This document shows positions 2,395 to 60,622 of a stretch of 64,000 bases of DNA, in pieces. The number at the start of each line of letters is the position of its first letter. Position 1 is the stretch's first letter. The notes under the pieces are model-generated. The model was given only the letters and a program-made list of their open reading frames with translations, was not told the origin of the DNA and did not search any database. A program made the translations under genes and the position numbers. Source of the stretch: an uncultured Candidatus Saccharibacteria bacterium (lineage in GTDB: Bacteria > Patescibacteriota > Minisyncoccia > Phycocordibacterales > UBA9973); assembly GCA_964626965.1 (NCBI GenBank), contig CAZVHB010000001.1, positions 1,818-65,817 on the forward strand, given 5' to 3'.

Positions 2395-2410
2395 AGTATA
2401 CCCCCACACC
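2395..2410 (-). promoter_or_regulatory. GGTGTGGGGGTATACT promoter-proximal motif abutting the recG start (left arm of a 24-bp inverted pair)
   Basis: The reverse complement reads tatatataGGTGTGGGGGTATACT-ATG. The same 16-mer recurs at 20460 and 11583, and the partner arm is at 2494-2517. Confidence 0.5.
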
Positions 2411-2500
2411 TATATATATAATAGTGGACATTTTTCAGATTTGTATTTTTTTTGGTTACTAAATTTTTGTATTACTTACAATAAAGTAGCCCTATATATA

Positions 2501-2516
2501 GGTATCGGGGTATACT
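2501..2516 (+). promoter_or_regulatory. GGTATCGGGGTATACT motif, right arm of the inverted pair, 6 nt upstream of the ATG at 2523
   Basis: tatatataGGTATCGGGGTATACT differs from the reverse complement of 2403-2426 at 3 of 24 positions. TATACT-N6-ATG. Confidence 0.5.
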
Positions 2517-3830: not shown

Positions 3831-4781
3831 ATGAAAAAGATAATTCTTTTGGCGATAATCGCCTCGACCATTTTTTCTTTACCAACGTTTGCTCAGCAAA
3901 CGTACATCGCAACTGATGTAAACGGTAAGCGGATTGATTCTGTAATTTATTACAGCTTAGAATCAGCGCAAGCTGCGGCTAATGCGTATGACTTACGTCA
4001 AAAACAACAATTAACACAAACGTTCACGGCGAAAGACGAGAACGGAAATGTAATTGGAGTGTATGCTTCTCAGCTAGAGGCACAAAATGCTACTAACGCA
4101 GATTACATGAGGAGGCATCCAGCTCCTGCACAAGGTAACACAAATCAACAGCCTGCTGAAGATCCATATCTTACTCGAAAAAAAGCTCTTGATTTACAAA
4201 AGGATCAAGAAACAGTTAAAGCTTTGAAGTTGCAAAACGCTAATTCCAAAATCACTATTTTAAACAATGGTATTACTACTGTTGGAAATGGTGTGGGGAC
4301 TGGTGTTTACATTGGTCAACAGCTTGGTCTGATTGGAAATGGTGGTGGACGAGCACAGTTCAATCGCTGTCGCTATTGCAATGTTACCTATGTTGGCACT
4401 CAGCATGTATGTAATCAAAGTGGTGTTGGTGGTGTAATGCCTCCTAACAGTGGTTACAATGGTAGTTATTGCCAAGGGTGTCGCCAGACTTATTATGGCG
4501 GTAATCATTCTTGTGGTACTACTGGTTTCGGCCAGCAAACACAAGGTTGCTTTTGTACTTATTATCAAGGGCAAGGATATGTTCCTAACCAATATGGTAC
4601 GGGTACATGGTGTACTTGGAGAATGAATAGTAATGGCTCCGGGTATGGTTGGTTTCCATCAACCCAACAAGGTGGTTGTGGTAATCAATATGGTGACGGG
4701 ATGTTTCATACACCAATCATCAATCGCTTTGATAATGGAGGACCTGTTCCAGGTGCTCAATATGGTGTTCGCATTTATTAA
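3831..4781 (+). CDS. Secreted Cys/Gly/Tyr-rich protein (signal peptide ...TFAQQ)
   Basis: N-terminal signal peptide. C-terminal half has 16 Cys in CxxC/CxC-like spacing and G/Y/N-rich low complexity. Confidence 0.7.
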   Translation: MKKIILLAIIASTIFSLPTFAQQTYIATDVNGKRIDSVIYYSLESAQAAANAYDLRQKQQLTQTFTAKDENGNVIGVYASQLEAQNATNADYMRRHPAPAQGNTNQQPAEDPYLTRKKALDLQKDQETVKALKLQNANSKITILNNGITTVGNGVGTGVYIGQQLGLIGNGGGRAQFNRCRYCNVTYVGTQHVCNQSGVGGVMPPNSGYNGSYCQGCRQTYYGGNHSCGTTGFGQQTQGCFCTYYQGQGYVPNQYGTGTWCTWRMNSNGSGYGWFPSTQQGGCGNQYGDGMFHTPIINRFDNGGPVPGAQYGVRIY

Positions 4782-4803
4782 TCTTATTTCAAAACATTTT
4801 AAA

Positions 4804-4836
4804 CTGACCGTTCTTCACAGAACGGTCTTTTATTTT
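4804..4836 (+). terminator. Rho-independent terminator
   Basis: gaccgttct-TCAC-agaacggtc followed by ttttatttt. Confidence 0.7.
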
Positions 4837-4947
4837 ACCTATATATATCAATAAAAAACGAGCAGAAAGACATTGACAAATAATACTTAATATGCTATAC
4901 TCTAGACAAATAAACAATATTCCAGAAACTCTAAAAAACGATAAAAG

Positions 4948-5904
4948 ATGAAAAAGTTACTCAGTTCTTTCCCAAAAATCCTACTCATTGTAGTAGGTTT
5001 AATAAATTTTAATTACAGTGCATTTGCACAACAGCCCGCCAAGAAAAAAAATATCACGTATTCAGCCGAAGCCGAACTTGCGTACGCGCAAGTATGTGCA
5101 GATTTAAAGGCAGAAAAAGATATTTTTAATTGTAGTCCTACGCTATGGCTACAACAAATCTGTGACAATGCAGTTGAGCAAGGCTATCCGAAATCAACTC
5201 CCGGTCAAATGCTTGATGTTATTCTTGATCCGAAGCAAACTTCTTTGAAGTGGCTTACACCCGATCAAGTTATCAATAGTTATTTGATGAGCGGTGGTTT
5301 TACGGATTGCTTAGCAAAGGAGAATGGATGGTATGTATGTGTTGGAGATTGTATTTTATTTCGACTTGGGCCAACAAATTGTTTGAACCCATGTAAATCT
5401 AAAAATACTGGAACTGGTCGTTACCCTAAAAGAGAACAACCTATTCCTCCTGCACCGCCAATCACTGTTGGACCTGCAAAAGTAACAAACACCGACGTTG
5501 GACCAAATGTAACAGTTACCCAAGCACAAGCACCGCAAAATGTAGTTTCCAATAGCTATAATACATATAACTTTGGAAGTACAACAGTGTCTGCTGTACC
5601 TCAGTTGATGCCGGTTTACTGGCCTCAACAACAACAGGTCAATGTGTATCAGCAACAGGGAACTGTGGCTCCTCCGATTAGCAACCAACCTACGTGTCCT
5701 AATGGGCAACAAGGGTACTGGTACACCTATCCTGATGGACAACGCCAATGGCTTTGTCCTTCATCTGGCACAGGTATCGCCCCTGGAACAGCTCCTGGTA
5801 CTAACGGTATAGGAATCCATCCTGGAGCCCCTGTGAACACCGGTGGTGTCATTACGAATCCTGGAGCAGGCACAAATGGTATCGGCATCACTCCTGGTGG
5901 TTAA
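4948..5904 (+). CDS. Secreted protein with a Cys-containing N-terminal domain and a Pro/Gly/Thr-rich C-terminal repeat region
   Basis: Signal peptide ...SAFAQQ. C-terminus has GTAPGTNGIGIHPGAP/GAGTNGIGITPGG repeats. Confidence 0.7.
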   Translation: MKKLLSSFPKILLIVVGLINFNYSAFAQQPAKKKNITYSAEAELAYAQVCADLKAEKDIFNCSPTLWLQQICDNAVEQGYPKSTPGQMLDVILDPKQTSLKWLTPDQVINSYLMSGGFTDCLAKENGWYVCVGDCILFRLGPTNCLNPCKSKNTGTGRYPKREQPIPPAPPITVGPAKVTNTDVGPNVTVTQAQAPQNVVSNSYNTYNFGSTTVSAVPQLMPVYWPQQQQVNVYQQQGTVAPPISNQPTCPNGQQGYWYTYPDGQRQWLCPSSGTGIAPGTAPGTNGIGIHPGAPVNTGGVITNPGAGTNGIGITPGG

Positions 5905-5931
5905 TTAATTAAATTTATTAAAAAACAAGTG

Positions 5932-5970
5932 TGAGGAATTTTTGGCCTTGCCAAAAATTCCTCCCTTTTA
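5932..5970 (+). terminator. Rho-independent terminator
   Basis: gaggaatttttggc/gccaaaaattcctc stem followed by a T-rich tail. Confidence 0.6.
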
Positions 5971-6049
5971 TAAAAATCTTATTGTTTGTATAATCAATAA
6001 AATGAGGTTTTTTAGAAGAAATTTTCACACATAGTTCCGATCGAGGAGC

Positions 6050-6077
6050 TTGACATAAATTTATAAATTGATATAAT
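6050..6077 (+). promoter_or_regulatory. Sigma70 promoter TTGACA-16-TATAAT, 8 nt upstream of the ATG at 6086 (leaderless or near-leaderless)
   Basis: Exact consensus hexamers. Confidence 0.7.
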
Positions 6078-6085
6078 AGCTTTAT

Positions 6086-8959
6086 ATGAAAAACATATTT
6101 ACAAAAATTAGTTCAAAAGCATACATAGGCGCACTTGCGCTCTTTTTGGCTTTTGGTCTTACAAGCCAAGCATATGCTGGCGCAGTTGCATGGGCAGGTC
6201 CAACAGAGTTTGGTACTATCGCTAATGTTACCGGAACATCAATCGTCGAAAGTAGTCCTTATACACCATTTTCTTATGCAAATACATCTTCTGCGTCTGC
6301 AGGTGATAAAGTTGCGGTTATTGTGTATTTCCACAATAAAGGAAATGCTGCATCTCCAAACACATATATTAAAGTAAATAAATCAACCAACGGCTCTGCC
6401 TCTACGTTTACATTTACTGGTTCTGTGTCTGGTGGTGGAGCTTCAAAATCTGGCTCAACAACAGTGAACCTTTCTTCTAGTCAAACACTCACGTATATCC
6501 CAGGATCACTACGCGTTAGTAAAGACCGTGCTCCAGTAGGGTACTCAGTATCAAATGATACAGACGTTTTTTCAGGTGCTGGTCTTGATATTGGGATGGT
6601 ACAAGGAATGGATACTTGCGGAACAGACGCACTCTGTCACCAAGGTTCTGTTGCACTTGGATTTCAAGTAAGTTCAACTTCTACAACTCATCTTTGTTCA
6701 AATGGACAAGATGATGACGGAGATCTCCTTATCGATATGAATGACCCAGGATGTACTGACCCAACTGATGATAATGAATACAATCTTGTATCACCACTTG
6801 TGTGTACAATCAATTCTTTCACTGGATCACCTTTGACTGTTGCTTCTGGTGGATATACAAATCTTTCATGGAACACAACAAACTGTACAACTGTTACTGT
6901 TGATGGATTTACCTATCCTGTCGATGGTAGTGGAAATTTTGGCCCACTCTTTGTCGGTAAAACATACTATCTTGCTGCTTCAAACGGAACTAGTACTGAC
7001 TCAGAAACAGTCTATGTTGGTGTAAATACTGTTGCTTCAGCATGTACAATTGATACATACTATGCATCACCAACTACAGTAACTTCAGGTGGATATACAA
7101 CAATTTATTGGAATACATCAAACTGTACGACTGTTACTATCGATGGTATGCCTCAGTCAGTAGACGGAAGTAATTCTTTTGGTCCGATCTATTCTGGTAA
7201 AACATACAACATTGTTGCGTCAAACAGTACAAGTACTGATTCAGATAGTCTCTACGTTGGAACAAATTCTGTAAATAACTGTACGATTGATAATTTCTAC
7301 GCATCACCATCTACTGTTTCTTCAGGGAACTACACAACACTTCATTGGAATACATCAAACTGTGACCAAGTGACGATCGACGGTATTACTTATTATTCTG
7401 TTGATGGAAGTGGATCTTTTGGACCACTCTACAGTGGACGAAGTTACCAAATCCAAGCATGGAAAACTAGTCAATCTCCAGTTTCTCAAACAACATACGT
7501 ATCAGTTGATACATACTCTTCAAACAACTGTAGTATCGATACTTTTTATGCATCACCTACAACAGTAATCTCAGGTAGTACTACTCAACTCTTTTGGAAT
7601 ACATCAAACTGCGACCAGGTTACTGTTGATGGTATTAATTATGGTGTTGATGGAAGTGGTTATTTCGGCCCACTCTATAGTGGACGAAGTTACGTGCTCA
7701 ATGCGTGGAAAAATGGTCAAACTGTACGTACACAAACAGTCTATGTTGGTGTAAATTCTGTCAATAATTCATCTTACGCATGTAATGATGGGTATGATAA
7801 TGATGGTGACGGACGTGTAGACTATCCAAATGACGCTGGTTGTTACTCATCAACTGATAACGATGAATACAACTATGTTGCACCAGCTGTTTTGAATACT
7901 GTTGTGACAACACTCAACCCAAGTAATCTTACATCTTCTTCTGCACGTTTGAATGGATCTATCTTCAATGGTGGAAATAATGCAACTCAGTTTTATTTTG
8001 AATGGGGAACAGATACAAATTCTCTTCCAAACAAAACAAATTCACAAACAACCTTTTCAGATAATTCAGTAACGTACTTTGATACTGCATACAATCTTTC
8101 AACTGGTGTTACCTATTACTATCGTGCAGTTGCACAAAAAAGTAATGGAGTGGTCATCCGTGGCGATATTAGACAATTTCGCTTGATTGAAGTGGTAACT
8201 CCTGTATTTACAAATACAGTGACACGAGTAGTTACGGTGCCAGCTCCAGTAGTACAAGAGAGAGGAGTAGTTGTCGGACTTGGAACAAATCTTGTACAGC
8301 TTCGATATATTACGAATGATATCCTTAGTACAAATACTGGTGGTTTTGGAATCACTCAAACTGGTATCAATCAAAATGTAAACAATGGTGTACAAAATGT
8401 CTGTGTTGATGACAGTATTAAATTTGTTGTTGAATACAGAAATATCTCAACAATTACACTTAATAATGCAATCCTTCATATTGATATTCCAAAAGATGTC
8501 GACTTCCGAAGTTCATCAGCCGGAGTATTTAATAAAGCAGACAATACTATCACTATCAATGTAGGAACACTCACTCCTGGTCAATCAGGTCAAGTATCTT
8601 TCGACGGAATTGTTATGAGTAGTGCAGCAAATCGAGATCTTCTCGTTGTCCCAGCAACACTCTCATTTGAAAATCCAAACAATGGTGCTCGAGAAACAGC
8701 GATTGCGTACGGACTCGCAACGACTCAAAACTGTATTAAAAATGGGGGACTTGCCGGATTCGCATTCGGTTCAGGATTCTTTCCAGATACACTCTTTGGA
8801 TGGTTGCTCTTAATTCTCGTACTCCTCGCTCTGATTTACCTTCTTCGAAGAATGTTTATGGTGTATGGAATCGGACCAAGATCAAAGACCACAACCACAA
8901 CGACTACACAAAGACATTACGAGGATATGGATATTCCAACAGCGCCATACCAACACTAA
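6086..8959 (+). CDS. Large cell-surface protein (957 aa): signal peptide, 4 tandem ~80-aa repeats flanked by Asp-rich CxxGxDxDGDG motifs, a fibronectin-III-like domain, a DUF11-like domain and a C-terminal TM anchor
   Basis: Repeats CTIDxFYASPxTVxSGxYTxLxWNTSNC..VT.DG..Y.VDGSG.FGP.YSG. Also NATQFYFEWGTD (fn3-like), TPGQSGQVSFDGIV (DUF11-like) and a C-terminal GSGFFPDTLFGWLLLILVLLALIYLLRR. Confidence 0.75.
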   Translation: MKNIFTKISSKAYIGALALFLAFGLTSQAYAGAVAWAGPTEFGTIANVTGTSIVESSPYTPFSYANTSSASAGDKVAVIVYFHNKGNAASPNTYIKVNKSTNGSASTFTFTGSVSGGGASKSGSTTVNLSSSQTLTYIPGSLRVSKDRAPVGYSVSNDTDVFSGAGLDIGMVQGMDTCGTDALCHQGSVALGFQVSSTSTTHLCSNGQDDDGDLLIDMNDPGCTDPTDDNEYNLVSPLVCTINSFTGSPLTVASGGYTNLSWNTTNCTTVTVDGFTYPVDGSGNFGPLFVGKTYYLAASNGTSTDSETVYVGVNTVASACTIDTYYASPTTVTSGGYTTIYWNTSNCTTVTIDGMPQSVDGSNSFGPIYSGKTYNIVASNSTSTDSDSLYVGTNSVNNCTIDNFYASPSTVSSGNYTTLHWNTSNCDQVTIDGITYYSVDGSGSFGPLYSGRSYQIQAWKTSQSPVSQTTYVSVDTYSSNNCSIDTFYASPTTVISGSTTQLFWNTSNCDQVTVDGINYGVDGSGYFGPLYSGRSYVLNAWKNGQTVRTQTVYVGVNSVNNSSYACNDGYDNDGDGRVDYPNDAGCYSSTDNDEYNYVAPAVLNTVVTTLNPSNLTSSSARLNGSIFNGGNNATQFYFEWGTDTNSLPNKTNSQTTFSDNSVTYFDTAYNLSTGVTYYYRAVAQKSNGVVIRGDIRQFRLIEVVTPVFTNTVTRVVTVPAPVVQERGVVVGLGTNLVQLRYITNDILSTNTGGFGITQTGINQNVNNGVQNVCVDDSIKFVVEYRNISTITLNNAILHIDIPKDVDFRSSSAGVFNKADNTITINVGTLTPGQSGQVSFDGIVMSSAANRDLLVVPATLSFENPNNGARETAIAYGLATTQNCIKNGGLAGFAFGSGFFPDTLFGWLLLILVLLALIYLLRRMFMVYGIGPRSKTTTTTTTQRHYEDMDIPTAPYQH
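6803..7774 (+). repeat. Four tandem ~240-bp (79-83 aa) intragenic repeats
   Basis: Each repeat starts with a TGT (Cys) codon, at 6803, 7043, 7280 and 7529. Confidence 0.8.
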
Positions 8960-9025: not shown

Positions 9026-9062
9026 TCTATAAGTTTATTTGGAAAGCTGATACAATGAGCAT

Positions 9063-11459
9063 ATGCAGAAATCACCCTACACCGAAACCTACATTCTCCT
9101 CGATGCACATGCGATTATTCACCGTGCGTACCATGCGATTCCTGACTTTACGACAAAAAGTGGTCAGCCGACAGGAGCTCTCTTTGGACTCATGAGTATG
9201 CTCATTCGCATTATGACCGAGATCAAACCAGACTATATTATTGCATGCTATGATCTACCCGATAAAACATTTCGTCATATTGCCTACGATGCATACAAAG
9301 GCACTCGCGCAAAGACTGATGATATTCTTGTCGAGCAACTCATCAAATCTCGCAGTATCTTTGAACGGTGTAATATCCCTATTTACGATGCAAAAGGATA
9401 TGAAGCAGACGACGTACTCGGCACGCTCGCTGATATCTTGAAGAAAAATAAGAAAAATAAAGTGATCATTGCGTCAGGTGATATGGATACGATGCAGTTG
9501 ATTGATAGTGACCAAGTTGTTGTGTATACACTCAAGAAGGGGATCACTGATACTATTTTTTATGATGAAGAAGCTGTGGTAGAGCGGTATGGATTTTCGC
9601 CTTCTTCGATTCCAGACTATAAAGGATTACGTGGCGATACATCAGATAATATTATCGGTATCAAAGGTATTGGTGAAAAGACTGCAACAATTCTCATTCA
9701 GAAATACGGTACGATAGAACAGATGTATGTTGCGCTTAAAAAAGACGAAGCAAAATTTAAAAAAGACACAGGTCTCACGGACAGACTTGTGGGGCTTATT
9801 CGTGATAATGAAGAAGAAGCACTTTTTTCAAAAGAGCTCGCGACCATACAACGAGATTTACCAATTAATCTTACGCCTTCTGTTCTTCATCATACTATCT
9901 TTAATAAAGATGACGTGATTGCGCTCTGTGAAGAACTTGAATTCAAAAGCCTCATTCCACGTATCTCAAATTTGTATACGAATAATACAGAAACAATTTC
10001 AAACAAGAAGACAGTTTCAAAAGAGGATACAAGTGAAGTGGTCCCAATAGTAGAGGTAGATCCAAAGTATCTTCTTGCTGTATCACTCCTTGATTCAGAG
10101 AAAATCAAACCAACAGCGGAGGATATTTTGGCCTATAGTAACCAAGGTGATTTGGGTGAAGCATATGCAACTATAGAGAAAGAAATAGTAAAAAATAATC
10201 TCGAGTATGTGTGGAAGGAGATTGAAATACCTCTCTATGATATTGTCCAAGAAATGTCAGCTACTGGTATTACGATTGATATTCCATATTTTAAAAAAAT
10301 GAGTGAAAAACTCCACAGTGAACTCGACACATTAGAAAAAAGAATTTGGCAACTTGCTGGACAAGAGTTCAATATTAACTCACCAAAACAAATGGGAGAA
10401 ATATTATTTACAGTGCTCAATTTAGGTGAAGGGCAGAAGAAAATCAAAAAAACTGCAGGTGGGGCTATTACGACAAAAGAATCCGAGCTTGAAAAGTTGC
10501 GTGATGCTCATCCTATTATCTCGTATATCCTCGAATACCGAGAGATTCAGAAGCTTGTTTCAACATATATTGATAGTATTCCACTCTTAGTTGGTGCTGA
10601 TGGACGAATCCACTCTACTTTCAATCAACTTGGTGCGGCAACTGGACGTTTTTCTTCAAACGACCCAAACCTTCAGAATATTCCTATCAAAACAGAACGG
10701 GGAAGACTTATTCGTGGTGGTTTTGTTGCAAAGTCAGGTTATGTATTTTTGGGCTTTGACTATTCTCAGATTGAGCTACGTGTTGGCGCGCTTCTTTCAC
10801 AAGATCCGGACATGCTTGATACATTCATTCATGGTAAAGATATTCATACAACTGTGGCGAAAAAAGTTTTTAATGTTGAAGAGTCTGGTGTCACTCCTGA
10901 CATGCGTCGCAAAGCAAAAGTGATTAATTTTGGAATTATGTATGGTATGGGTGCGACAGCGCTCTCAGAAAATTTGGGTGTCCCACGAAAAGAAGCCCAG
11001 CTTTTTCTAGAAGAATATAAAAAACAATTTCCTGGGCTCAATATGTACCTTGAATCTATCGTAGAATTTGCAAAGACACACAAATATACGGAAACATTTT
11101 TTGGAAGAAAGAGAAATTTTTCAAAAATAAATTCAGTCATTCCATTTATTCGTGCAATGTATGAACGTATGGCAGTCAATGCACCAGTGCAGGGGACAGC
11201 TGCAGATATTATTAAGCTTGCGATGTTGCATTCACGTAAAATACTTGCGGAACACAAACTTGATATACATGCACAGCTCGTTTTGCAAGTGCATGATGAA
11301 ATTATTTTTGAAGTTGAAGAAAAATATCAACAAGAAGTAGCGGAACTCATCGAAAAGACGATGGAAAATATCATCCCGAAAAATATGAAAAAAGATCTTA
11401 TTTTTCCACCTTTTTCAACTTCTGTTGCGGTCGGGAAAACCTGGGCAGATTTGAAGTAA
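9063..11459 (+). CDS. polA: DNA polymerase I (5'-3' exonuclease plus polymerase; the 3'-5' exonuclease domain looks reduced)
   Basis: Motif A DYSQIELR, motif B RRKAKVINFGIMYG, motif C QVHDEIIFE. TACAAT-N6-ATG lies at the start. Confidence 0.9.
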   Translation: MQKSPYTETYILLDAHAIIHRAYHAIPDFTTKSGQPTGALFGLMSMLIRIMTEIKPDYIIACYDLPDKTFRHIAYDAYKGTRAKTDDILVEQLIKSRSIFERCNIPIYDAKGYEADDVLGTLADILKKNKKNKVIIASGDMDTMQLIDSDQVVVYTLKKGITDTIFYDEEAVVERYGFSPSSIPDYKGLRGDTSDNIIGIKGIGEKTATILIQKYGTIEQMYVALKKDEAKFKKDTGLTDRLVGLIRDNEEEALFSKELATIQRDLPINLTPSVLHHTIFNKDDVIALCEELEFKSLIPRISNLYTNNTETISNKKTVSKEDTSEVVPIVEVDPKYLLAVSLLDSEKIKPTAEDILAYSNQGDLGEAYATIEKEIVKNNLEYVWKEIEIPLYDIVQEMSATGITIDIPYFKKMSEKLHSELDTLEKRIWQLAGQEFNINSPKQMGEILFTVLNLGEGQKKIKKTAGGAITTKESELEKLRDAHPIISYILEYREIQKLVSTYIDSIPLLVGADGRIHSTFNQLGAATGRFSSNDPNLQNIPIKTERGRLIRGGFVAKSGYVFLGFDYSQIELRVGALLSQDPDMLDTFIHGKDIHTTVAKKVFNVEESGVTPDMRRKAKVINFGIMYGMGATALSENLGVPRKEAQLFLEEYKKQFPGLNMYLESIVEFAKTHKYTETFFGRKRNFSKINSVIPFIRAMYERMAVNAPVQGTAADIIKLAMLHSRKILAEHKLDIHAQLVLQVHDEIIFEVEEKYQQEVAELIEKTMENIIPKNMKKDLIFPPFSTSVAVGKTWADLK

Positions 11460-11486
11460 ATCCTTTGGACATTACATGATACTAGT

Positions 11487-11602
11487 GATATACCCCGACA
11501 CCAATCCTTATTTTTTTACCCTAGATTGAGGTTTTTATAAGTAAGGTGGTATGAATGTTATTTCGTTGTAAGTTGTAAAAAGATTGGTGTGGGGGTATAA
11601 TA
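11487..11602. repeat. Inverted pair of the GATTGGTGTSGGGGTATA motif (20 bp, 2 mismatches) flanking ~76 bp
   Basis: 11487-11506 gatataccccgacaccaatc versus 11583-11602 gattggtgtgggggtataat. The right arm precedes the 11625 gene; the left arm has no cognate gene. Confidence 0.6.
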
Positions 11603-13013: not shown

Positions 13014-13487
13014 ATGAAAAAATCTCAAAAAGGTTTTACACTCATCGAACTTTTGATTGTTATCGCAATCATCGGTGTACTCGCAGCTGTTCTTATTCCT
13101 AACTTGCTCGCAGCTCGTAACAAAGGAGTAGACGCAGCTATTAAAGCTAACCTTGCTGCTACAAAATCTCAAGCAACATTGTTCTACGAAACATCACAAG
13201 TATTTACTGGTGTGTGTGCAACTGGATCTTCAACAGCTATCGGTGATATGGTTCTCAGTGCAGCACAAAAACTCTCTGGAGCTAACACTGTAACTGCTGC
13301 TACATGGGCGTACTCTTCAACTGGTGCGGCTAACTCTGCTGTGTGTCATGATAACGCTACAGCATGGGCAGCGATGGTATCTCTCAAGAACCCATCAACT
13401 ACATCTGGTGGATGGTGTGTTGACTCAACTGGTGCTACAAAAGAAACAGCTACTGCACTCGCAGCTGGTATTGCTGTTTGTCCATAA
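13014..13487 (+). CDS. Type IV pilin (major pilin paralog 1)
   Basis: Class III signal MKKSQKG/FTLIELLIVIAIIGVLAAV with a C-terminal Cys-Cys disulfide loop. Confidence 0.9.
   Translation: MKKSQKGFTLIELLIVIAIIGVLAAVLIPNLLAARNKGVDAAIKANLAATKSQATLFYETSQVFTGVCATGSSTAIGDMVLSAAQKLSGANTVTAATWAYSSTGAANSAVCHDNATAWAAMVSLKNPSTTSGGWCVDSTGATKETATALAAGIAVCP
13028..13158 (+). repeat. 131-bp segment identical to 13640-13770 (conserved 5' part of two pilin genes)
   Basis: Exact nucleotide identity across the prepilin N-terminal helix coding region. Confidence 0.9.
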
Positions 13488-13582: not shown

Positions 13583-14098
13583 ATGAAGATTTATATAAAA
13601 CATAAAGAAAAATTCGCGAGGGAAAGTATTATAAATAGTAAAGGTTTTACACTCATCGAACTTTTGATTGTTATCGCAATCATCGGTGTACTCGCAGCTG
13701 TTCTTATTCCTAACTTGCTCGCAGCTCGTAACAAAGGAGTAGACGCAGCTATTAAAGCTAACCTTGCTGGTATACGTTCAGAAGATATTTTATATTATGA
13801 AAATAACAACTCTTCTTTTTTAAACATCTGTACTACGTCAGTTACCGGTCTCGCTGACCAACTTGATAGTGCCGCAAAAAAGCTCTCTGGTTCTAATACT
13901 GTTGGTGGTTCAGCTCAAGCTTTTACCTACTCTGCAACTGGTGGTACTGGTTCTGCTGTGTGTCATGACTCTGCTACGGGTTGGGCTGCGGTTGTGTCGC
14001 TCAAGAACCCATCAACTGCATCTAGTGGATGGTGTATTGATTCCGTGGGTGTTTCAAAAGAAGTTACTACACTCGGAGCTAATATACGTGCTTGTTAA
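13583..14098 (+). CDS. Type IV pilin (paralog 2)
   Basis: Same N-terminus as paralog 1, variable middle, conserved C-terminal CHD...W..VSLKNPST...GWC. TGTATACT-N6-ATG at 13583. Confidence 0.85.
   Translation: MKIYIKHKEKFARESIINSKGFTLIELLIVIAIIGVLAAVLIPNLLAARNKGVDAAIKANLAGIRSEDILYYENNNSSFLNICTTSVTGLADQLDSAAKKLSGSNTVGGSAQAFTYSATGGTGSAVCHDSATGWAAVVSLKNPSTASSGWCIDSVGVSKEVTTLGANIRAC
13640..13770 (+). repeat. Second copy of the 131-bp identical pilin 5' segment
   Basis: Identical to 13028-13158. Confidence 0.9.
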
Positions 14099-14156: not shown

Positions 14157-14223
14157 AACACGCTATGTGAATATCTTCTGTTTACTTCTTTCTTTTTTAA
14201 AAGTATCTGGGTATACTATACGT

Positions 14224-14700
14224 ATGAAAAAAATATATAAATCTCAAAAAGGTTTTACACTCATCGAACTTTTGATTGTTATTGCAATTATTAGTGTTAT
14301 TGCCTCTGTGCTTATTCCAAACGTCATGGCTGCGCGAGACAAAGGAACAACCGCTGCGCAAAGAGCCGAAGTAAAAACAGTACAAACAGAAGCAGTTGTT
14401 TTATGGGAAGCTAATAGTGGTAATCTTACCACTGTGTGTACTAACAGTACTGGGGCTCCTCGTACAGCACTCTTGAGCGCCCTGAAAAAGGGCTATCCAA
14501 ATGGTCAAATTGGAATTTTGGCGAACTCCATAGCATCGAGTTCTGGTAACGGTGCTGGTGTGTGCCACAGTACGGCATCTGCATACGGGGCAGAAATACC
14601 TCTTAAGTCTGGTGGATTTTTGTGTATGGATTCTACTGGTTTAGTGGTAGAATCTCTGACGACAAAAATTGGAACAGTGAATGATACATCTTGTTTATAA
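14224..14700 (+). CDS. Type IV pilin (paralog 3, divergent)
   Basis: MKKIYKSQKG/FTLIELLIVIAIISVIASV. GGTATACT-N6-ATG. Confidence 0.85.
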   Translation: MKKIYKSQKGFTLIELLIVIAIISVIASVLIPNVMAARDKGTTAAQRAEVKTVQTEAVVLWEANSGNLTTVCTNSTGAPRTALLSALKKGYPNGQIGILANSIASSSGNGAGVCHSTASAYGAEIPLKSGGFLCMDSTGLVVESLTTKIGTVNDTSCL

Positions 14701-20409: not shown

Positions 20410-20450
20410 TAATAGGGGCGGAAAACCGTAGGTTTTCCGCCCCTATTTTG
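20410..20450 (+). terminator. Rho-independent terminator
   Basis: aataggggcggaaaacc-gta-ggttttccgcccctatt followed by ttg. Confidence 0.8.
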
Positions 20451-20459: not shown

Positions 20460-20475
20460 GGTGTGGGGGTATACT
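20460..20475 (+). promoter_or_regulatory. GGTGTGGGGGTATACT motif, 6 nt upstream of the ATG at 20482
   Basis: Identical 16-mer to the one at recG. Confidence 0.5.
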
Positions 20476-23522: not shown

Positions 23523-24476
23523 TTAGTGTCCGTGTCCATGTGCATCATGCCCATGAGCGTTTCCTCGTCTGAGGAAAAATCTAAATAAGTAGATGATTGC
23601 ACCAACAAGAACTGCAAGGAAAATCCATCCGAGGAGTGTTCCTCCGAAGAAGTTACTTCCTGAACCGATTGCACTTGCTCCGAGAGCACTGTTTGCACAG
23701 GTACCGTTTCCAAATGCATATGCGACAACCATGTTTTGATTTTGATCAGGGAGTGTATAGACCATTTCACTACGAGCAACTCCTTCTATGATTCCAGTTT
23801 TTTTAACTGGGAAGAGAATTTGTCCTCCTTGTTCAGGTGCGAGTGTGCCTACAAAGAAGGTGACAGTGTTGTCTCTTTCTGAGTATGATCCACCATTCGT
23901 ATTTGTTGGGGTGATTCCTGTTGGGAGACTGATTCGAATTGCAACATTAGTTACAACAGCTCCTGTGATATTTTTGTACAAAATAAGATATTCTTCTTTT
24001 GTTGTTCCACAGAGTCCGTTATTAGTACCCATAGCAAGTCCCTTACTATTTACGAGTGCCTGAAGGTTTTGATCGGCTTGTGCACTATCAGACCCATTTG
24101 AAAAGATTTTTTTACCTCCAAAGATACCGTCAAAAATAGTTCCATCGTTATTTGAACTGGTGTTCGTTGTTGTGTTGGTGTTTCCTGCACTGTTTCCATA
24201 CTGTGTGCCTGCATACGTATCATTACCCATAATAATAGGGGCTTGAGGAATATACTGAGCTGGTTGCTGGTAGTTTGAAGTAACCACACCTTGATTGGTG
24301 TTTTGGTATGCAGATACAGCATTGTTTTGTCCTGTGTATGTATTTCCGTAGGTTTGTGGTAATTGATTTGCATATTGAGCACAACCTGGGTCGTACATAG
24401 TACATGCCGATGCTTTACTTGCAAGTACAGAGAAAACAAAGAAAGCTATTAAAATAATGATTTTTTTGATATTCAT
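23523..24476 (-). CDS. Surface protein with a DUF11-like domain and a C-terminal sorting-signal-like tail plus a His-rich end
   Basis: Signal peptide. GTLAPEQGGQILFPV (DUF11-like). The C-terminus GSGSNFFGGTLLGWIFLAVLVGAIIYLFRFFLRRGNAHGHDAHGHGH parallels the C-terminus of the 6086 protein. Confidence 0.7.
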   Translation of the reverse strand: MNIKKIIILIAFFVFSVLASKASACTMYDPGCAQYANQLPQTYGNTYTGQNNAVSAYQNTNQGVVTSNYQQPAQYIPQAPIIMGNDTYAGTQYGNSAGNTNTTTNTSSNNDGTIFDGIFGGKKIFSNGSDSAQADQNLQALVNSKGLAMGTNNGLCGTTKEEYLILYKNITGAVVTNVAIRISLPTGITPTNTNGGSYSERDNTVTFFVGTLAPEQGGQILFPVKKTGIIEGVARSEMVYTLPDQNQNMVVAYAFGNGTCANSALGASAIGSGSNFFGGTLLGWIFLAVLVGAIIYLFRFFLRRGNAHGHDAHGHGH

Positions 24477-24566
24477 ATAGATACATTATAGCAAATATAC
24501 ATAATTTGTCAAGTTTTTTGTATTAAAACTCTTTACCCTATAAAAGCTTTAAAATAAAGGATATAT

Positions 24567-24595
24567 TTGACATTTTTTTATATATAATATATAGT
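24567..24595 (+). promoter_or_regulatory. Sigma70 promoter TTGACA-17-TATAGT
   Basis: Consensus hexamers 17 nt upstream of the ATG at 24613. Confidence 0.55.
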
Positions 24596-24612
24596 AAAAA
24601 AAATTTAACAAT

Positions 24613-25233
24613 ATGAATATAGACTCCACAGAATCAGTTAATTTTGATAATGGGTTACTCAAACAACCTTTTTCTAAATTTACTATTCGCTTAATTGGTC
24701 ATTGCGATAAGTTATTTATTGGTTTACTTTTACGAGTTGAACATATTTATAAAAAACTCATCGACCGTGAAATACATCAGTGTCATCGGCCTGCACCAGT
24801 GATTGACCCTAAGTTTCATAATATGCTTAGTGGTGTACTCATTAGTGCAACTCCATCATTTGAATTAAATTCTTATTTTGGTTTTACACCTAAAATGTTT
24901 TTTAAAAAAAGCCAAATGAATGCTGAGGAAATCTTAACTCACCTTCGTGCTAATAATTTTGGATTTAAGTTTTTTACACCAGAAGAAGTACATCAGGTGG
25001 TAGCAAAAATTACTCAAAAAGATTTTTTCTGTAAAAGAAATCAGCCGGTAATTATCTTCTATAGATATCCTGAAAGTTTAAGGATTTTCTGTATCTGGAT
25101 GTTTCGTGATAAACGGAATCGGTTGCATGTTTATGACCTGGACTATTATGTCAGTGGTTTTAAGTTACCAACTTTCTCTATTGTCTTTACTAAAGACAAT
25201 GTTCTGGAACAAGAAGAAACCATCCCCGATTGA
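24613..25233 (+). CDS. Hypothetical protein
   Basis: Long ORF downstream of a promoter. No recognisable domain. Confidence 0.5.
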   Translation: MNIDSTESVNFDNGLLKQPFSKFTIRLIGHCDKLFIGLLLRVEHIYKKLIDREIHQCHRPAPVIDPKFHNMLSGVLISATPSFELNSYFGFTPKMFFKKSQMNAEEILTHLRANNFGFKFFTPEEVHQVVAKITQKDFFCKRNQPVIIFYRYPESLRIFCIWMFRDKRNRLHVYDLDYYVSGFKLPTFSIVFTKDNVLEQEETIPD

Positions 25234-25307
25234 GCCCATCGACTTCGATTCATAAGCCCTTGCGAAAGTGAGGGTTTTTTTATTACCCAAAATAGAGTAT
25301 AGTGTGT

Positions 25308-25632
25308 GGGTTGCACAGATACACGCGCTCTGCCTTAAAACAGAGTGAGGAAAGTCCGAACACACCTACAGCAATGTAGAGAATGGTAGTGGGTAATACC
25401 CATCCGTAGTAATACGCGTGGTGCGAGCAGTGACGCCAATGTCGAAAGGCTAGGCATCCTTCGGGATGATGCCTCTCGAGAGAGAGGAGTGAAACGGCTA
25501 AATCCGTACTTGTGTGCAAGATCGCGTCTGAGATAGAAATATCGAGGAAGAATCGCTTGAGGTAGATAGTAATGTCTATCCTAGATAAATGTGTATACTA
25601 GACAGAATTCGGCTTATCGTGTGACGTTATAA
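25308..25632 (+). ncRNA. rnpB: RNase P RNA (bacterial type, reduced)
   Basis: P4 5' strand GAGGAAAGUCCGAAC and P4 3' strand ACAGAAUUCGGCUUA with the expected single-nucleotide bulge. TATAGT lies upstream and a terminator follows. The ends are approximate. Confidence 0.65.
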
Positions 25633-25665
25633 AAAACACCATTGAAAGATGGTGTTTTTTATTTT
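25631..25665 (+). terminator. Rho-independent terminator
   Basis: aacaccattgaaagatggtgtt followed by ttttatttt. Confidence 0.8.
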
Positions 25666-25753
25666 CTGGTAGTGAATTTTGCAGAAGCGATTTTTTGTCG
25701 CGTTATATAAACATCGTCAAAATCTACTATCGGGTTTGTGATATAATTCTTAT

Positions 25754-26242
25754 ATGGAACGTATCGTAAAAATATATAAACACATATTTCATTTTTTTGA
25801 TAGATTAGAAGACCATGTTCGTGGATTACTTTCAAAATATCCTATCTGGTATGCAATTCTTGCAGGTATCTGTATTGTCCTTTTTTGGAGAGGTGTATGG
25901 CACACAGGGGATAGTATTCAAGCCAGAGGAGGGTTTTGGGGATTTATTTTCTCTGGGCCAATATCACTTGCGCTGAGTACTATTCTTCTTTTGGTTATCG
26001 GAGTCTTTGTGTCTGCTTTTGTTGGTGACATGCTTGTTCTCTCTGGAATAAAAAAAGAAAAAAAGATGGTTGATAAGACAGAAGAAGAAGTGAGACAAGA
26101 GGGAGGTGAACTCGAGCAAGTAGAACAGGTGATAGATGATTTGTATGAAGAAGTTGATGAGGTGAGTGATAAGCAAGAGGTATTAGAGAAAAAGATTGAT
26201 GAACAAACGGAACTTTTGAAACAGGTTCTCAAAAGAGATTAA
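25754..26242 (+). CDS. Hypothetical membrane protein with an acidic coiled-coil C-terminus
   Basis: Two TM helices, then an E/K-rich heptad region. Confidence 0.5.
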   Translation: MERIVKIYKHIFHFFDRLEDHVRGLLSKYPIWYAILAGICIVLFWRGVWHTGDSIQARGGFWGFIFSGPISLALSTILLLVIGVFVSAFVGDMLVLSGIKKEKKMVDKTEEEVRQEGGELEQVEQVIDDLYEEVDEVSDKQEVLEKKIDEQTELLKQVLKRD

Positions 26243-33918: not shown

Positions 33919-34467
33919 ATGAAAAAAGATAAACAAGCACTTACAACTTCCGACTTGTCACAAAAGTATGGTCAGTTCGCAATGCGACTCGTTCCTCGCC
34001 TGCTCACTACTTTTGAAGAAGCAGAAAAAACAGCCCACATTAATAACGGCCATGATGACTTTTATGAAAAAAATTCTATTGCCAAAGCGAAATTATTCGA
34101 TATTCCGACAAGTATCGAAGGAGAAGAATTAGTCTTGTATTACGAAGGGAAAAAACAGCTAATTTTAAAAGAAGGATTTCATGAGTATTTTAAATTAAAA
34201 GGTTATGAAGTCATTAATAATCCTGCACCCTCCTTACTCATTGATGCCAGCGCAATTTTAACGGAGCAAAAGCTCACGGAGCTTGGTATCCCGGCTGATG
34301 TGAATATCGTGTTGCCGTCTGCCTATGGGAATACCTTCTGGATCGCTCTTAGTATTTTCTGTTTTCCAGCCGTGCATCGTGGCGGAGGCTATCGTGGCCT
34401 GGACATGGCGAGCATTAATCTTGTTTGGAACCGCCACTTTGCATTCCTTCTTCGTAAAATCATTTAA
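33919..34467 (+). CDS. Hypothetical protein
   Basis: ORF with its own promoter. No recognisable domain. Confidence 0.5.
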   Translation: MKKDKQALTTSDLSQKYGQFAMRLVPRLLTTFEEAEKTAHINNGHDDFYEKNSIAKAKLFDIPTSIEGEELVLYYEGKKQLILKEGFHEYFKLKGYEVINNPAPSLLIDASAILTEQKLTELGIPADVNIVLPSAYGNTFWIALSIFCFPAVHRGGGYRGLDMASINLVWNRHFAFLLRKII

Positions 34468-36141: not shown

Positions 36142-37194
36142 TTATTTTTTACCTAAATTTCGCAAATGTCGAAAGTGGCTTTTGAGTGCATACCAAAATG
36201 TAACTTCTGTGTATGGTAAATCAAACTCCGTGCATCTATCTACAACAATTTTCTGCATGTCTGGATAATGTGTGTGACTTACTTTAGGGAATAAGTGATG
36301 AACTGTTTGGAAATTAAGTCCACCGAGTAACCATGTCAGGAGTGTGCTATCTGTTCCAAAATCCATCGTTTCAAATACTTGCTGTTCTGCCCAAGATGTT
36401 GGCATTTTTCTATCTCTACTTTCTGTAAAATGTGCATGTTCGTGTATATGTGCAAGTTGGAATATAACACTAATAATAATCCCAACAGTCATAAAGTACA
36501 CAAGCCAGCCGATGATAAACATCCAACCGAATACAACATAAGGGATGATTACAAAAAATGTGATGTGTAGTATTTTTGTGATCCAAAAAATCCATTTGTC
36601 GTTTGTACCCATGTTTATTTTTTTTCCATGAATTTCTTTTTTAAAATACTTTTCATAGTCGTTAAAATAAATCCACTGTATCGCTAGAAATGAGTAGAGA
36701 GGTACTGCGTAGAGATGTTGGTATTTATGATACCATCTCCATTCTTGGTTTGGACTCATGCGAAGTAACCCACCTGTATCAATATCGTCATCATGCTCTG
36801 TGTTTACAAAAGTATGATGTAGTACAACATGTTTTGTCTTCCACATAAAATCACTGCCACCAACGAGGTTCAGTGTTCTTCCGAGCCAGGTATTAACCCA
36901 TCCTTTCTTGGAGTATGCACCATGAGACGCATCGTGCATGATGTTGAAGTTTACTAACGAAGAGAGTACTCCTAACACACAACATAAAAAGAGAAGTGTT
37001 TGAGGGGAGAAATTGTAGATGAAAATAGAGATGTAGCAGAGTGTCCATAGTGTAAAAAGCATAATACTTTTTACGTAGAGTCGAAAGTCAGCATACGGCG
37101 ATATCTGCCGTTTTTTAAAATAGGTATCTTTTGCATCTTTTAAAGATGTTAAAAATGGCCCGTCCGGGGCGTATTTTAGTGTGGCTATTTCCAT
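36142..37194 (-). CDS. Membrane fatty-acid desaturase family protein
   Basis: Three His boxes: HDASHGA, HVVLHH and QTVHHLFP. Four TM helices. Confidence 0.8.
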   Translation of the reverse strand: MEIATLKYAPDGPFLTSLKDAKDTYFKKRQISPYADFRLYVKSIMLFTLWTLCYISIFIYNFSPQTLLFLCCVLGVLSSLVNFNIMHDASHGAYSKKGWVNTWLGRTLNLVGGSDFMWKTKHVVLHHTFVNTEHDDDIDTGGLLRMSPNQEWRWYHKYQHLYAVPLYSFLAIQWIYFNDYEKYFKKEIHGKKINMGTNDKWIFWITKILHITFFVIIPYVVFGWMFIIGWLVYFMTVGIIISVIFQLAHIHEHAHFTESRDRKMPTSWAEQQVFETMDFGTDSTLLTWLLGGLNFQTVHHLFPKVSHTHYPDMQKIVVDRCTEFDLPYTEVTFWYALKSHFRHLRNLGKK

Positions 37195-44704: not shown

Positions 44705-45337
44705 ATGAAAAGATTAACCCTTGATTCAGTCCTACCTGTTATTTTGAAAGAGCGTAATATTGCTCCGCAACACCTAGCTTCTATCTTAAAAGATGTAGAA
44801 GCATCTTTTGTAAAACACAAAAAGAAAACAGATTTTTTAAAATACTCAGTTTCATGTGTTGCAAATAAATGTTTGAATACTTCACCACTTTTATCAGTAA
44901 AAAAATTTTTTACCGGAGGATATGATGAAAGCTTAGTGACGTTTTTTGCAGGACAGAAACTGAAACCACTTACGAGTGGTTACGGTGGAGTGTGTTTGTA
45001 CAAAATGAAGAAAGGTGTAAGTGGATCACCAAAAGAAGCGTTCTATTCGCTCGGTAAATCTCTCAGTTCTTTGCATCTCCCGCAAAACTTATTGGTGCAG
45101 ATTCTCACTCAAGATAAATTTCTTTCTTTACGACAGAAGATATTTACATCTGGAAAATCATTCCATTGTGTTATGACTAACCAAAATGGACACCACTTTA
45201 CTGAACAAGAACACTGTTATGCTGTGGTGACACTGACATCCAACGAAGACGGCCCACAGATATACATGAATGAATTTGGGTTCAGAACTTCCCTTAAAGG
45301 AGGTTCAAATAACCAAATTTTAGTCATGGAAAAATAA
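44705..45337 (+). CDS. Hypothetical protein
   Basis: ORF between two terminators. No recognisable domain. Confidence 0.5.
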   Translation: MKRLTLDSVLPVILKERNIAPQHLASILKDVEASFVKHKKKTDFLKYSVSCVANKCLNTSPLLSVKKFFTGGYDESLVTFFAGQKLKPLTSGYGGVCLYKMKKGVSGSPKEAFYSLGKSLSSLHLPQNLLVQILTQDKFLSLRQKIFTSGKSFHCVMTNQNGHHFTEQEHCYAVVTLTSNEDGPQIYMNEFGFRTSLKGGSNNQILVMEK

Positions 45338-45380: not shown

Positions 45381-45437
45381 ATTTCACTTTACTATTGAGA
45401 CATTAATTTTTACTTTATTTTATGCTATAATCGACCT

Positions 45438-48045: not shown

Positions 48046-48067
48046 TTGATTATGCTATAATGCATAT

Positions 48068-48394
48068 ATGAATAGTGAAAATGTAAAACTCGTCGTTTTT
48101 GTTCCAATAAGTCATGCAGATATTGTTCGAGAAACGCTGGGAAAAGCTGGAGCAGGAAAAATCGGTAACTACACTTTTTGTTCTTTTTCCGTATCTGGGT
48201 ACGGGCGGTTCTTGCCTGAGCAAGGTGCAACTCCCGCTATTGGGGAGGTCGGTGTATTTGAAAAAGTTGAAGAAGAAAGAATCGAAGTTGTTTGTCCGAC
48301 TGGAATAATAAAAGATGTAATACAGGCCATGAAGGCGGCTCATCCTTATGAAGAAATTGCTTATGAGGTATATCCACTCTTGAATTTTGAATAA
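48068..48394 (+). CDS. Small PII/CutA-like fold protein resembling the insert domain of the Nif3/YqfO family
   Basis: ...GNYTFCSFSVSGYGRFLP..GA.P.IGEVG..E.V.E.RIEVVCP......V..A....HPYEE.AYEVYPL. TGCTATAAT-N6-ATG. Confidence 0.45.
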   Translation: MNSENVKLVVFVPISHADIVRETLGKAGAGKIGNYTFCSFSVSGYGRFLPEQGATPAIGEVGVFEKVEEERIEVVCPTGIIKDVIQAMKAAHPYEEIAYEVYPLLNFE

Positions 48395-59445: not shown

Positions 59446-59988
59446 TTAGAGGCTGAAGACCTTGCAGACGAGTACCGTCACTGGGTCAATACTACAACTA
59501 TTTGCGAGGATTCCGCCGAGTGCGCCAGTCATCATGACTGAGAGAAAACCAGCACTTGCGAGTATGATTCGAACAGCTGTTTTTTCAAACAAGAAAATAA
59601 AACTGAGAAGAAATGCTGGGATTTTTGATCTGATGAGTGTGTATATTTTTGAGTTTCTCACTTGTGGCATATTCTCCATGAATGAAATAAGATATGATAT
59701 TGCAAGTACTAAAAAAATTGCCACAGTTATACTTGCAAATGTTTGATGGAGGTCGAGTGTTGCACGAAGGTGCATATCATTTCTGTTGATAATGTCTTCT
59801 ATCATCTCACCGGTTGTTTCTGAGAGAAATCCAGAAACAACTCCAGTAACGAGAAGTATTCCTTTGGTGACTTCTAAAGATTCTTTTTTACGAAGGTATT
59901 TTGACAGGGAGAGCATTTCTAAAAACGCATATAAAGAGAGCAGTGCAATAGGGAAATGGACGAGTAATAAGTGGTAGTTATTGTTCAT
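59446..59988 (-). CDS. Hypothetical integral membrane protein
   Basis: Five or six TM helices. Start taken at the MNNNY ATG (59988) to avoid a 5' overlap with ogt; the ORF track extends to 60084. Confidence 0.5.
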   Translation of the reverse strand: MNNNYHLLLVHFPIALLSLYAFLEMLSLSKYLRKKESLEVTKGILLVTGVVSGFLSETTGEMIEDIINRNDMHLRATLDLHQTFASITVAIFLVLAISYLISFMENMPQVRNSKIYTLIRSKIPAFLLSFIFLFEKTAVRIILASAGFLSVMMTGALGGILANSCSIDPVTVLVCKVFSL

Positions 59989-60010
59989 ATTCACATGATA
60001 CACTGTTTTT

Positions 60011-60616: not shown

Positions 60617-60622
60617 TTCTCT

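Follow-up and report, generated by a model that had tools for sequence, protein, structure and literature searches.

We analysed a 64-kb window (the whole stretch of DNA considered here) of contig CAZVHB010000001.1, from an uncultured bacterium of the Candidate Phyla Radiation (CPR; Patescibacteria), in which a 16-mer, GGTGTGGGGGTATAMT, recurs in front of several genes. Exact copies lie at 2395-2410 (minus strand), 11586-11601 (plus) and 20460-20475 (plus), and near-copies at 2501-2516 (plus; GGTATCGGGGTATACT) and 11487-11502 (minus; GGTGTCGGGGTATATC). All five are intergenic, and the sequence GGGGTATA is confined to these five places in the whole 64 kb. With up to three mismatches allowed, six matches to the 16-mer were observed against 0.33 expected, and none of 100 shuffles reached six. 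According to Pfam, the genes behind four of the copies encode RecG, a DUF192 protein, a membrane methyltransferase of PEMT/ICMT-like type and a fusion of a UvrD helicase with a PD-(D/E)XK nuclease, in agreement with the identities given in a first-pass annotation of this DNA. That annotation had placed the 16-mer just 5' of the recG and UvrD-nuclease starts and had listed further copies at the DUF192 gene (with N6 before the ATG) and the methyltransferase gene; these copies are all real, the former as a near-copy and the latter as an exact one. The spacing TATACT-N6-ATG indeed occurs at recG (ATG 2388-2386), at the DUF192 gene (ATG 2523) and at the UvrD-PD-(D/E)XK gene (ATG 20482), a second in-frame ATG of recG directly abuts the hexamer at 2394, and the methyltransferase ATG (11625) lies 23 nt downstream of its own hexamer. 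The 24-bp inverted pair with three mismatches described in the recG/DUF192 spacer is slightly better than stated (arms 2394-2418 and 2493-2517, 25 nt, 92% complementary), while a second pair (arms 11489-11509 and 11579-11599, 21 nt, 90% complementary) had been overlooked, as had the fifth motif copy at 11487-11502. A search for tRNAs and Rfam RNAs at the motif sites found none.

The motif has to be read against the ordinary promoters of this organism. Most first genes of the transcription units in the window are leaderless and preceded by TGnTAnnnT-N6-8-ATG, as in TGATACAAT-N6-ATG at polA and TGCTATAAT-N6-ATG at 45438 and 48068, and the genome appears overwhelmingly leaderless. At least 11 transcription units carry TGnTAnnnT exactly 6-8 nt before the ATG (for example 9049-9065, 25742-25756, 45426-45440, 48056-48070 and 60609-60625), and internal operon genes of the window have no visible Shine-Dalgarno sequence. 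TATAMT, correctly recognised in the first-pass annotation as a -10 hexamer, is thus the ordinary -10 box for leaderless genes here (generic TGnTATAAT-N6-ATG). Since the ordinary promoters share TATAMT, the distinctive part of the motif is the ten bases GGTGTGGGGG, hereafter the G block, which occupy the TGn (extended -10) position of the other promoters. The G block is carried by only about 4 of about 24 recognisable window promoters, so that the motif is not simply the generic promoter form, a fallback that had also been considered. Furthermore, a supposed partial copy at the third pilin gene, GGGTATACT (14209-14217, plus; ATG 14224), proved to be an ordinary leaderless promoter without GGTGTG and without a partner arm, and not a copy of the motif. 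This gene is the last of three type IV pilin genes arranged in tandem (13014-13487, about 13631-14098 and 14224-14700), which share a nearly identical N-terminal coding sequence and are each followed by a terminator hairpin of their own.

The origin of the G block became clear from loci of other genomes (designated by L-numbers) that were compared with the window. In L141, whose RecG is 85% identical, the DUF192/recG spacer is empty and reads CAT-ctctat-AGTATACT-acatat-ATG, in which AGTATACT is a symmetric -10 common to two divergent leaderless genes 20 bp apart, while the window reads CAT-agccat-AGTATA[CCCCCACACC-90 bp-GGTATCGGGGTATA]CT-acatgt-ATG, with the additional DNA in the outer brackets. 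The same site is filled in L017 (RecG 90% identical), as AGTATA[CCCCCACACC...GGTGTGGGGGTATA]CT, with just 20 bp between the blocks. At the polA/methyltransferase site, filled in the window, L206 (PEMT 87% identical, same polA-PEMT synteny) carries an uninterrupted promoter, TTGGACA-ttatctgtagctag-TGATATAAT, and a MAFFT alignment of the window with L206 gave a single clean 107-nt gap, TATACCCCGACACC...GGTGTGGGGG, between TGA and TATAAT, with well-conserved flanks. TATA stands on both sides of this insertion, whereas both empty sites (L141 and L206) have a single TATA. In two independent cases, then, the window sequence equals the empty site plus CCCCCACACC...GGTGTGGGGG+TATA, and the uninterrupted sequence predicted by an insertion was found at both orthologous sites. 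The polA/PEMT site is likewise empty in L207 and L208, the more distant relatives L019, L021, L207 and L208 have generic promoters and no G block, and the 77%- and 60%-identical relatives have recG behind generic TGn promoters. These empty orthologous sites indicate that the G block came by insertion. It was rightly noted to stand in place of an extended -10, but it is imported DNA and not a promoter element that evolved there, and its interpretation as the signature of a dedicated sigma or transcription factor is not supported.

Taken together, we consider it likely that the 16-mer represents the terminus of a short palindromic insertion element, which is non-coding and has duplicated TATA at its flanks, and that it does not mark a repair regulon. 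The 16-mer would be a junction, composed of the last 10 nt of the terminal repeat (GGTGTGGGGG), a 4-bp target duplication (TATA) and the host leftover MT. As read from the DNA, the element is inserted in a TATA that in many cases makes up the first four positions of the -10 box of a leaderless gene; the former -35/TGn half is displaced 30-110 bp upstream and now ends in TATA+CC, and at the other, live junction a TATAMT hexamer is restored at the original distance (N6-8) from the ATG. The TATACC of the displaced half is presumably a dead hexamer because it has no T at -7. The element end and the leftover host -10 probably form a working promoter, since essential genes (aminoacyl-tRNA synthetases, RF2, LigA, FtsH and GatC) depend on it and its geometry equals that of the generic leaderless promoters; live arms show the TAnnnT hexamer and the 6-8 nt spacing expected of a leaderless promoter, with GGG replacing TGn. 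The element end may take over the upstream half of the promoter, through G at -14/-13 and an A-rich tract from -30 to -26, and gene expression would then be kept and the insertion tolerated. A G-rich region beside the -10 is a known stimulatory feature (PMC12641261).

Three elements were delimited in the window. The first, E1, extends over 2397-2514 including both TATA copies (an insertion of 114 bp counting one TATA) and consists of TATA (2397-2400), the C block CCCCCACACC (2401-2410), a 90-bp inner part (2411-2500), the G block GGTATCGGGG (2501-2510) and TATA (2511-2514). Both of its arms are putatively live: the left one (2395-2410, minus), made of terminal repeat, TATA and CT, would provide the -10 hexamer TATACT of recG (2400-2395), and the right one (2501-2516, plus), with two mismatches in the G block, that of the DUF192 gene (TATACT, 2511-2516). 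Two live arms are present because the insertion hit the symmetric bidirectional -10 AGTATACT between divergent leaderless genes, whereas the polA/methyltransferase site has one live and one dead arm because a one-way promoter was hit.

The latter element, E2, extends over 11489-11599 including both TATA copies (an insertion of 107 bp, as defined by the MAFFT gap in L206 and the inverted repeat) and comprises TATA (11489-11492), the C block CCCCGACACC (11493-11502), an 83-bp inner part (11503-11585), the G block (11586-11595) and TATA (11596-11599). Its putatively dead arm (11487-11502, minus) has no T at -7 and points into the 3' end of polA, with no gene behind it; the predicted live arm (11586-11601, plus) would supply the -10 hexamer TATAAT (11596-11601) of the PEMT-like gene (ATG 11625, with a leader of about 16 nt) and of the following gene of 231 aa. 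Adjoining the dead arm is the displaced upstream half of what appears to be the ancestral methyltransferase promoter (11465-11492, plus), collinear with the intact L206 promoter TTGGACA-N14-TGATATAAT and made up of a -35-like TTGGACA (11465-11471), a 17-bp spacer ending in TGA (11486-11488) and TATA (11489-11492), followed by CC to give the crippled hexamer TATACC. The third, E3, is a solo arm (20460-20475, plus), with the G block at 20460-20469 and a putative -10 hexamer TATACT at 20470-20475 for the leaderless UvrD/PD-(D/E)XK gene. No partner arm was found for it within 160 bp, and it is presumably a truncated element left behind the ligA intrinsic terminator, whose hairpin and T run (20414-20444, plus) lie directly upstream and outside the element. 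The equivalent position in L141 reads TGGTATAGT-N8-ATG at the uvrD gene; in that locus uvrD starts 9 bp after ligA, with its promoter embedded in the ligA end, and ligA itself (527-2536, minus) is called as three ORFs (frameshifts or assembly errors).

We then searched 185,579 species, each represented by a single genome, for exact copies of the 16-mer; the 118 stretches listed are a lower bound. As a result, at least about 75 exact matches were obtained in at least about 48 metagenome-assembled genomes (MAGs) of Patescibacteria, several per genome, labelled Nomura-, Yonath-, Taylor-, Kaiser-, Wolfe-, Moran- and Colwellbacteria, Paceibacterota and others; RecG homologues at about 57% identity are named Candidatus Pacebacteria. 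Copy numbers reach at least nine exact arms in the Nomurabacteria MAG CALRGH01, compared with the three elements of the 64-kb window. Without the -10 requirement there are many more copies of GGTGTGGGGGTATA, then with CC, GC, TC or AC in place of MT. Matches outside the CPR were rejected as copies of the element, being a different hairpin repeat of Clostridia and OmpR-type coding sequence. The Clostridia repeat, GGGGGTGTGGGGGTATAATACCCCCAC, which is abundant, is found in MAGs at L025, L032, L036, L042, L060, L082, L083, L097, L100, L104, L108, L112, L119, L120, L129 and L137, often adjoining GCGAGGGTGTAACACCCTCGC hairpins; it looks like an unrelated family resembling repetitive extragenic palindromes (REPs) that matches the 16-mer by chance. 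Viral contigs were likewise dismissed as carriers, because their 16 singleton matches did not exceed our chance estimate for a collection of that size.

The counts of pairing, dead arms and downstream genes given below come from the Patescibacteria sites among the matches listed. At these sites an ATG begins 6-8 nt past the hexamer in 42 of 70 cases, and conservation reaches upstream to AAAAGTW. An inverted partner arm lies within 160 bp upstream at 68 of the 73 evaluable sites (93%; 0.08 expected), with a gap between the blocks that is most often 16-22 bp and has extremes of 8 and 116 bp. The TAnnnT hexamer is absent from 50 of the 68 partner arms, and an ORF starts within 12 nt of none of 31 dead arms as against 50 of 81 TAnnnT arms. 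On the strand of the live gene, the outer flank of the dead arms reads TGn-TATA, with G at -14 in 34 of 40 (p = 1e-12) and T at -15 in 22 of 40 (p = 7e-4), and TTG stands at -35 spacing in 9 of 40, against 0-3 in shifted controls. Such TGn and -35 remnants are expected if the insertion of CCCCCACACC...GGTGTGGGGG+TATA cut an ordinary promoter after TATA, and the dead partner arms thus appear to retain the former promoter's displaced TGn and -35, a footprint of promoter splitting.

About 90 non-redundant elements share the common ends CCCCCACACC...GGTGTGGGGG and a complementary inner extension. The consensus anatomy is [CCCCCACACC-WAC-TTTT ... AAAA-GTW-GGTGTGGGGG], with 9-116 bp between the blocks, and the elements are non-coding and 29-136 bp in size. 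The inward extension of the repeat differs (AACTTTT/AAAAGTT, TACTTTT/AAAAGTA, AATC/GATT), and both arms of one element vary together, even within one genome, while the central parts show no relation between copies in length or sequence. TATA stands on both sides in 49 of the 90 elements; where the flanks are not self-complementary, direct repeats (TAAA, TGTA, CAAG) are commoner than inverted ones, which is what a 4-bp target duplication should give. The short elements form near-perfect hairpins, as at L029 (z = -11.9; -27.6 kcal/mol when folded as DNA). In this lineage the repeat also exists in a form that has C at block position 6 (GGTGTCGGGG / GGTATCGGGG), seen at 2501-2510 and 11493-11502 of the window and in the YchF promoter of a 90%-identical relative (L116, 4438-4453).

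The identity of the genes behind the motif bears on the proposal that it marks an in-place promoter class, GGTGTGGGGG+TATAMT, read by a specific sigma or transcription factor and controlling a DNA-damage or repair regulon. Pfam annotation of about 57 genes downstream of the motif in Patescibacteria gave RF2, ArgRS, SerRS, GatC, SpoU (twice), YchF and beta-CASP RNases (twice), and also D-Ala-D-Ala ligase (Ddl), FtsH, pyrophosphatase, cyclophilin, G6PD, Hsp20, an M1 peptidase, a DsbA-like protein, PilB, a prepilin peptidase and many unknowns. It is true that two of the four window genes behind live arms encode repair helicases (recG and the UvrD-nuclease gene), that LigA (twice), UvrD and a DNA polymerase III delta'-like protein are found among the sites elsewhere, and that the register of the motif to the -10 is fixed. 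However, most downstream genes are unrelated to DNA repair and serve translation, the cell envelope, proteolysis or metabolism, so that the enrichment upstream of repair and recombination genes proposed as a check did not appear, and the genes behind the motif are a broad housekeeping cross-section of a small genome. Recurring gene families (9) are at about the chance level (about 8 among some 71 sampled sites, by a rough estimate of ours that assumes about 300 promoters per genome), dead arms are located where no gene starts, polA and ligA in the window lack the motif, and recG itself is expressed from generic promoters in the relatives mentioned above. The empty sites, moreover, point to clean insertion with TATA duplication rather than to evolution by point mutation. 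A repair regulon is thus extremely improbable. Known DNA-damage operators gave no match: there is no dyad resembling a LexA box; in the PafBC-like -26 element (RecA-NDp), which in mycobacteria is TGTCGGTG-N8-TAnnnT, GTCGGTG resembles GTTGGTG of the motif, but the spacing is 2 bp off, the gene set is wrong and the origin here is insertional.

The position of the elements is far from random. All window elements sit in promoter -10 boxes at the 5' ends of genes, yet few TATA tetranucleotides of the window open a -10 box beside an ORF start (13 of 375 overall, 3%; 13 of 108 intergenic ones, 12%), which means that promoter occupancy is far above random. A flank-unbiased metagenome scan with CCCCCACACCAACTTTTT yielded 29 non-redundant elements, in 15 of which a live arm lies 4-12 nt away from the start of an ORF, and several others lie at non-promoter sites with other 4-mer flanks. 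Promoter occupancy reflects either a target preference or the survival only of those insertions that leave a working promoter. The best reading is that of an element resembling the MITEs (miniature inverted-repeat transposable elements) and targeting, or surviving in, the TATA cores of -10 boxes in this CPR bacterium and many of its relatives. Like MITEs, the elements are small, non-coding and present in multiple copies per genome, with terminal inverted repeats, a flanking target-site duplication and presence/absence polymorphism at orthologous sites. As for mobilisation, either a DDE transposase with 4-bp duplications or an IS200/IS605- or RAYT-like (REP-associated tyrosine transposase) single-strand mechanism, with insertion 3' of TATA of an element that itself ends in TATA, would fit.

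Several points weigh against this reading. Promoter activity, start sites and mobility are all deduced from sequence. About 1 Mb of fetched loci yielded neither an autonomous copy nor a transposase with matching ends, nor did any two arms spaced 200-6000 bp in these loci enclose an ORF-bearing element, and ten unannotated ORFs of the window gave no transposase domain. A common interior derived from a parent insertion sequence (IS), as in MITEs, was not observed, since interiors differ between copies; inner parts are unrelated even where the window and L017 are filled at the same orthologous position (with 90 and 20 bp, respectively), which is unusual for a MITE family. About one third of the elements lack identical 4-mers on both sides, and with two taxa per orthologous site, insertion in one lineage and precise excision in the other cannot be told apart. 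Finally, the arms of about 21 nt are almost invariant across lineages of 37-55% GC, the dead arms are near-perfect, and in the orthologous elements L067/L099 the inner part is about 25% diverged (by eye, with no computed alignment) while the live arm is identical at 16 of 16 positions. Invariant arms together with near-perfect dead arms suggest selection on the arms or recurrent homogenisation, and not merely parasitic spread. This leaves room for selection acting through promoter function and possibly through a conserved arm-binding protein, or for hairpin-driven homogenisation, each of which could rival or complement a plain MITE.

The invariance of the arms is also an argument for a portable operator, in which they would bind a conserved Patescibacteria protein (a global repressor or activator, or a domesticated transposase) and a mobile module would control 10-20% of promoters; such a role can coexist with an insertional origin. 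The same L067/L099 pair, the inverted pairing at 93% of the sites, as for a dimeric binder, and the overlap of the arm with -29 to -9, a classic repressor position, speak for it. Nevertheless, the arm-to-arm spacing of 8-116 bp shows no clear helical phasing, and given this range we rejected a single dimeric operator whose half-sites are a set distance apart. Within one genome, JACPHR01, bases of the inner repeat covary between the arms (aaTcttgt/acaagAtt versus aaActtgt/caagTtt), which fits hairpin correction better than read-out by a protein; in addition, the target genes have no common theme, no transcription-factor gene recurs beside the sites, and the register to the -10 does not vary, as it usually would in repressor operators. 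We therefore regard the operator as distinctly unlikely. A further reading, which we offer tentatively and hold to be rather unlikely, is an ancient, still-active promoter-homing palindrome of Paceibacteria-type Patescibacteria that would specifically recognise the -10 TATA, perhaps when melted or bound by RNA polymerase, with protein-bound, invariant 21-nt arms acting as a portable and self-spreading module of core promoter and operator that would have rewired 10-20% of transcription units where transcription factors are almost absent.

Another alternative is that the palindromes are not transposons. They would then pass from promoter to promoter as copies made through template switching or microhomology-mediated gene conversion at TATA, or persist because of a structural role, in which a cruciform or hairpin shields leaderless promoters against read-through or aids melting. 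The near-perfect hairpins of the short elements, compensatory changes that preserve arm complementarity, the TATA microhomology at both junctions, the location of many elements between tandem genes and the failure to find a transposase in the fetched loci and the ten window ORFs would all accord with it. By contrast, long elements (inner part 42-116 bp) are poor hairpins, the TAAA, TGTA and CAAG direct repeats resemble true target duplications, and some elements, flanked by other 4-mers, are not located at promoters. Canonical terminators often adjoin the elements (L087, L078, L136 and window 20414-20444), which makes a terminator role redundant, and the hairpin is not followed by a U tract; on these two grounds we rejected an intrinsic terminator role of the palindrome. 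A non-transposon origin is, in our judgement, very unlikely. Other candidates were discarded as well: a sigma-54 -24/-12 promoter shares TGG alone, GC being absent at -12, and the T at -7 is required in live arms; the periodicity is wrong for the GTGGG repeats of MraZ; integron attC sites (RYYYAAC/GTTRRRY) match poorly and occur in the wrong genomic context; and the motif is far too rare (about 1 per 20 kb) for a DNA uptake sequence, for which target duplications would not be expected.

Returning to the insertion element, we compared it with known systems. IS200/IS605-type elements insert 3' of a specific tetranucleotide, with no true inverted-repeat-dependent cutting, and such a mechanism would also yield TATA + hairpin + TATA. 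Like the REPs, which form bacterial interspersed mosaic elements (BIMEs) and are linked to RAYTs, and like the IS200/IS605 group, our element is a small extragenic repeat that is rich in GC, can form a hairpin and occurs in tens to hundreds of copies. However, the REP tetranucleotide GTAG is absent, the ends here reading TATA-CCCCCACACC; REPs lie mostly at gene 3' ends, whereas 15 of the 29 flank-unbiased elements and all window elements are at 5' ends; and REP families are species-specific, whereas this element is widely spread, and no RAYT/TnpA gene turned up in the fetched loci. The ends of IS1, IS2, IS256 and IS257 bring an outward -35 that pairs with a resident -10 at chance distance. As in these hybrid promoters, a mobile element end and resident sequence would together make a working promoter here, but our element splits the -10, the 3' part of which stays in register with the start codon of a leaderless gene. 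The host targets themselves, TGnTATAAT-N6-ATG and AGTATACT, are of the extended -10 and the symmetric bidirectional -10 kind, and the G run of the element keeps a G at -14; the difference is that GGTGTGGGGG is imported DNA and not an in-place variant.

The closest analogue in behaviour is the Correia element (Correia repeat enclosed element, CREE, or Neisseria miniature insertion sequence, NEMIS), the ends of which begin with TATA and which duplicates a TA target. Both are short and non-coding, with terminal inverted repeats, many copies that mostly stand directly before genes, and sigma-70-like promoter sequence driving neighbouring genes. The Correia elements, a MITE of Neisseria, lie mostly just upstream of genes and carry sigma-70-like promoters, including one for uvrB (PMC10969869). 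They differ in being 100-200 bp long, with conserved interiors, an integration host factor (IHF) site and restriction to one genus, whereas the element described here is as short as 29 bp, has an unconserved interior, occurs in many Patescibacteria lineages, and sits inside the -10 hexamer itself, which it regenerates. There is no sequence similarity, as judged by inspection against the Correia end TATAGTGGATTAA... with no comparison computed, and the resemblance is functional only. In the literature searched, the coverage of which was incomplete, no description of this sequence or of such elements in CPR bacteria was found, so that we call it undescribed only provisionally; a MITE survey of 183,232 genomes makes no mention of Patescibacteria.

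Some further features of the window were recorded. An intergenic region at 60451-60511 contains a tract of about 44 nt that consists almost wholly of G (GCG22CG12TGGGTGGGG), followed by A13 and a canonical terminator hairpin at about 60534-60561, and the tract could be a real homopolymer or else an artefact of poly-G sequencing or of assembly. An RNase P RNA of bacterial class A (25307-25632, plus) scores barely at the Rfam gathering threshold (100.6 against 100), and the ORF that overlaps it (25283-25519, minus) is spurious. Nine ORFs (162-957 aa) within 3831-8959, 23523-26242, 33919-34467, 44705-45337 and 59446-60084 have no Pfam match at E <= 1e-4. The fatty-acid desaturase-like gene at 36142-37194 (minus) is unusual in a reduced CPR genome.

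If our reading is correct, what looked like a regulon motif before repair helicases is the end of a repeat element, and motif-based inference of regulons in CPR/Patescibacteria should first mask this family. The preferred surviving site would be a -10 box whose hexamer remains intact and in register, which differs from the known ways in which ISs and MITEs create promoters and shows how leaderless, -10-dominated promoters can tolerate such insertions. The element may further serve as a lineage marker and as a handle for finding a transposase or an arm-binding protein, and an arm of about 21 nt with TATAMT is a candidate portable promoter for CPR genetics. Finally, if the share seen in the window (about 4 of 24 promoters) is typical, a sizeable fraction of the promoters in these reduced genomes would be chimeric, which would be relevant to how expression is set in organisms with very few transcription factors.

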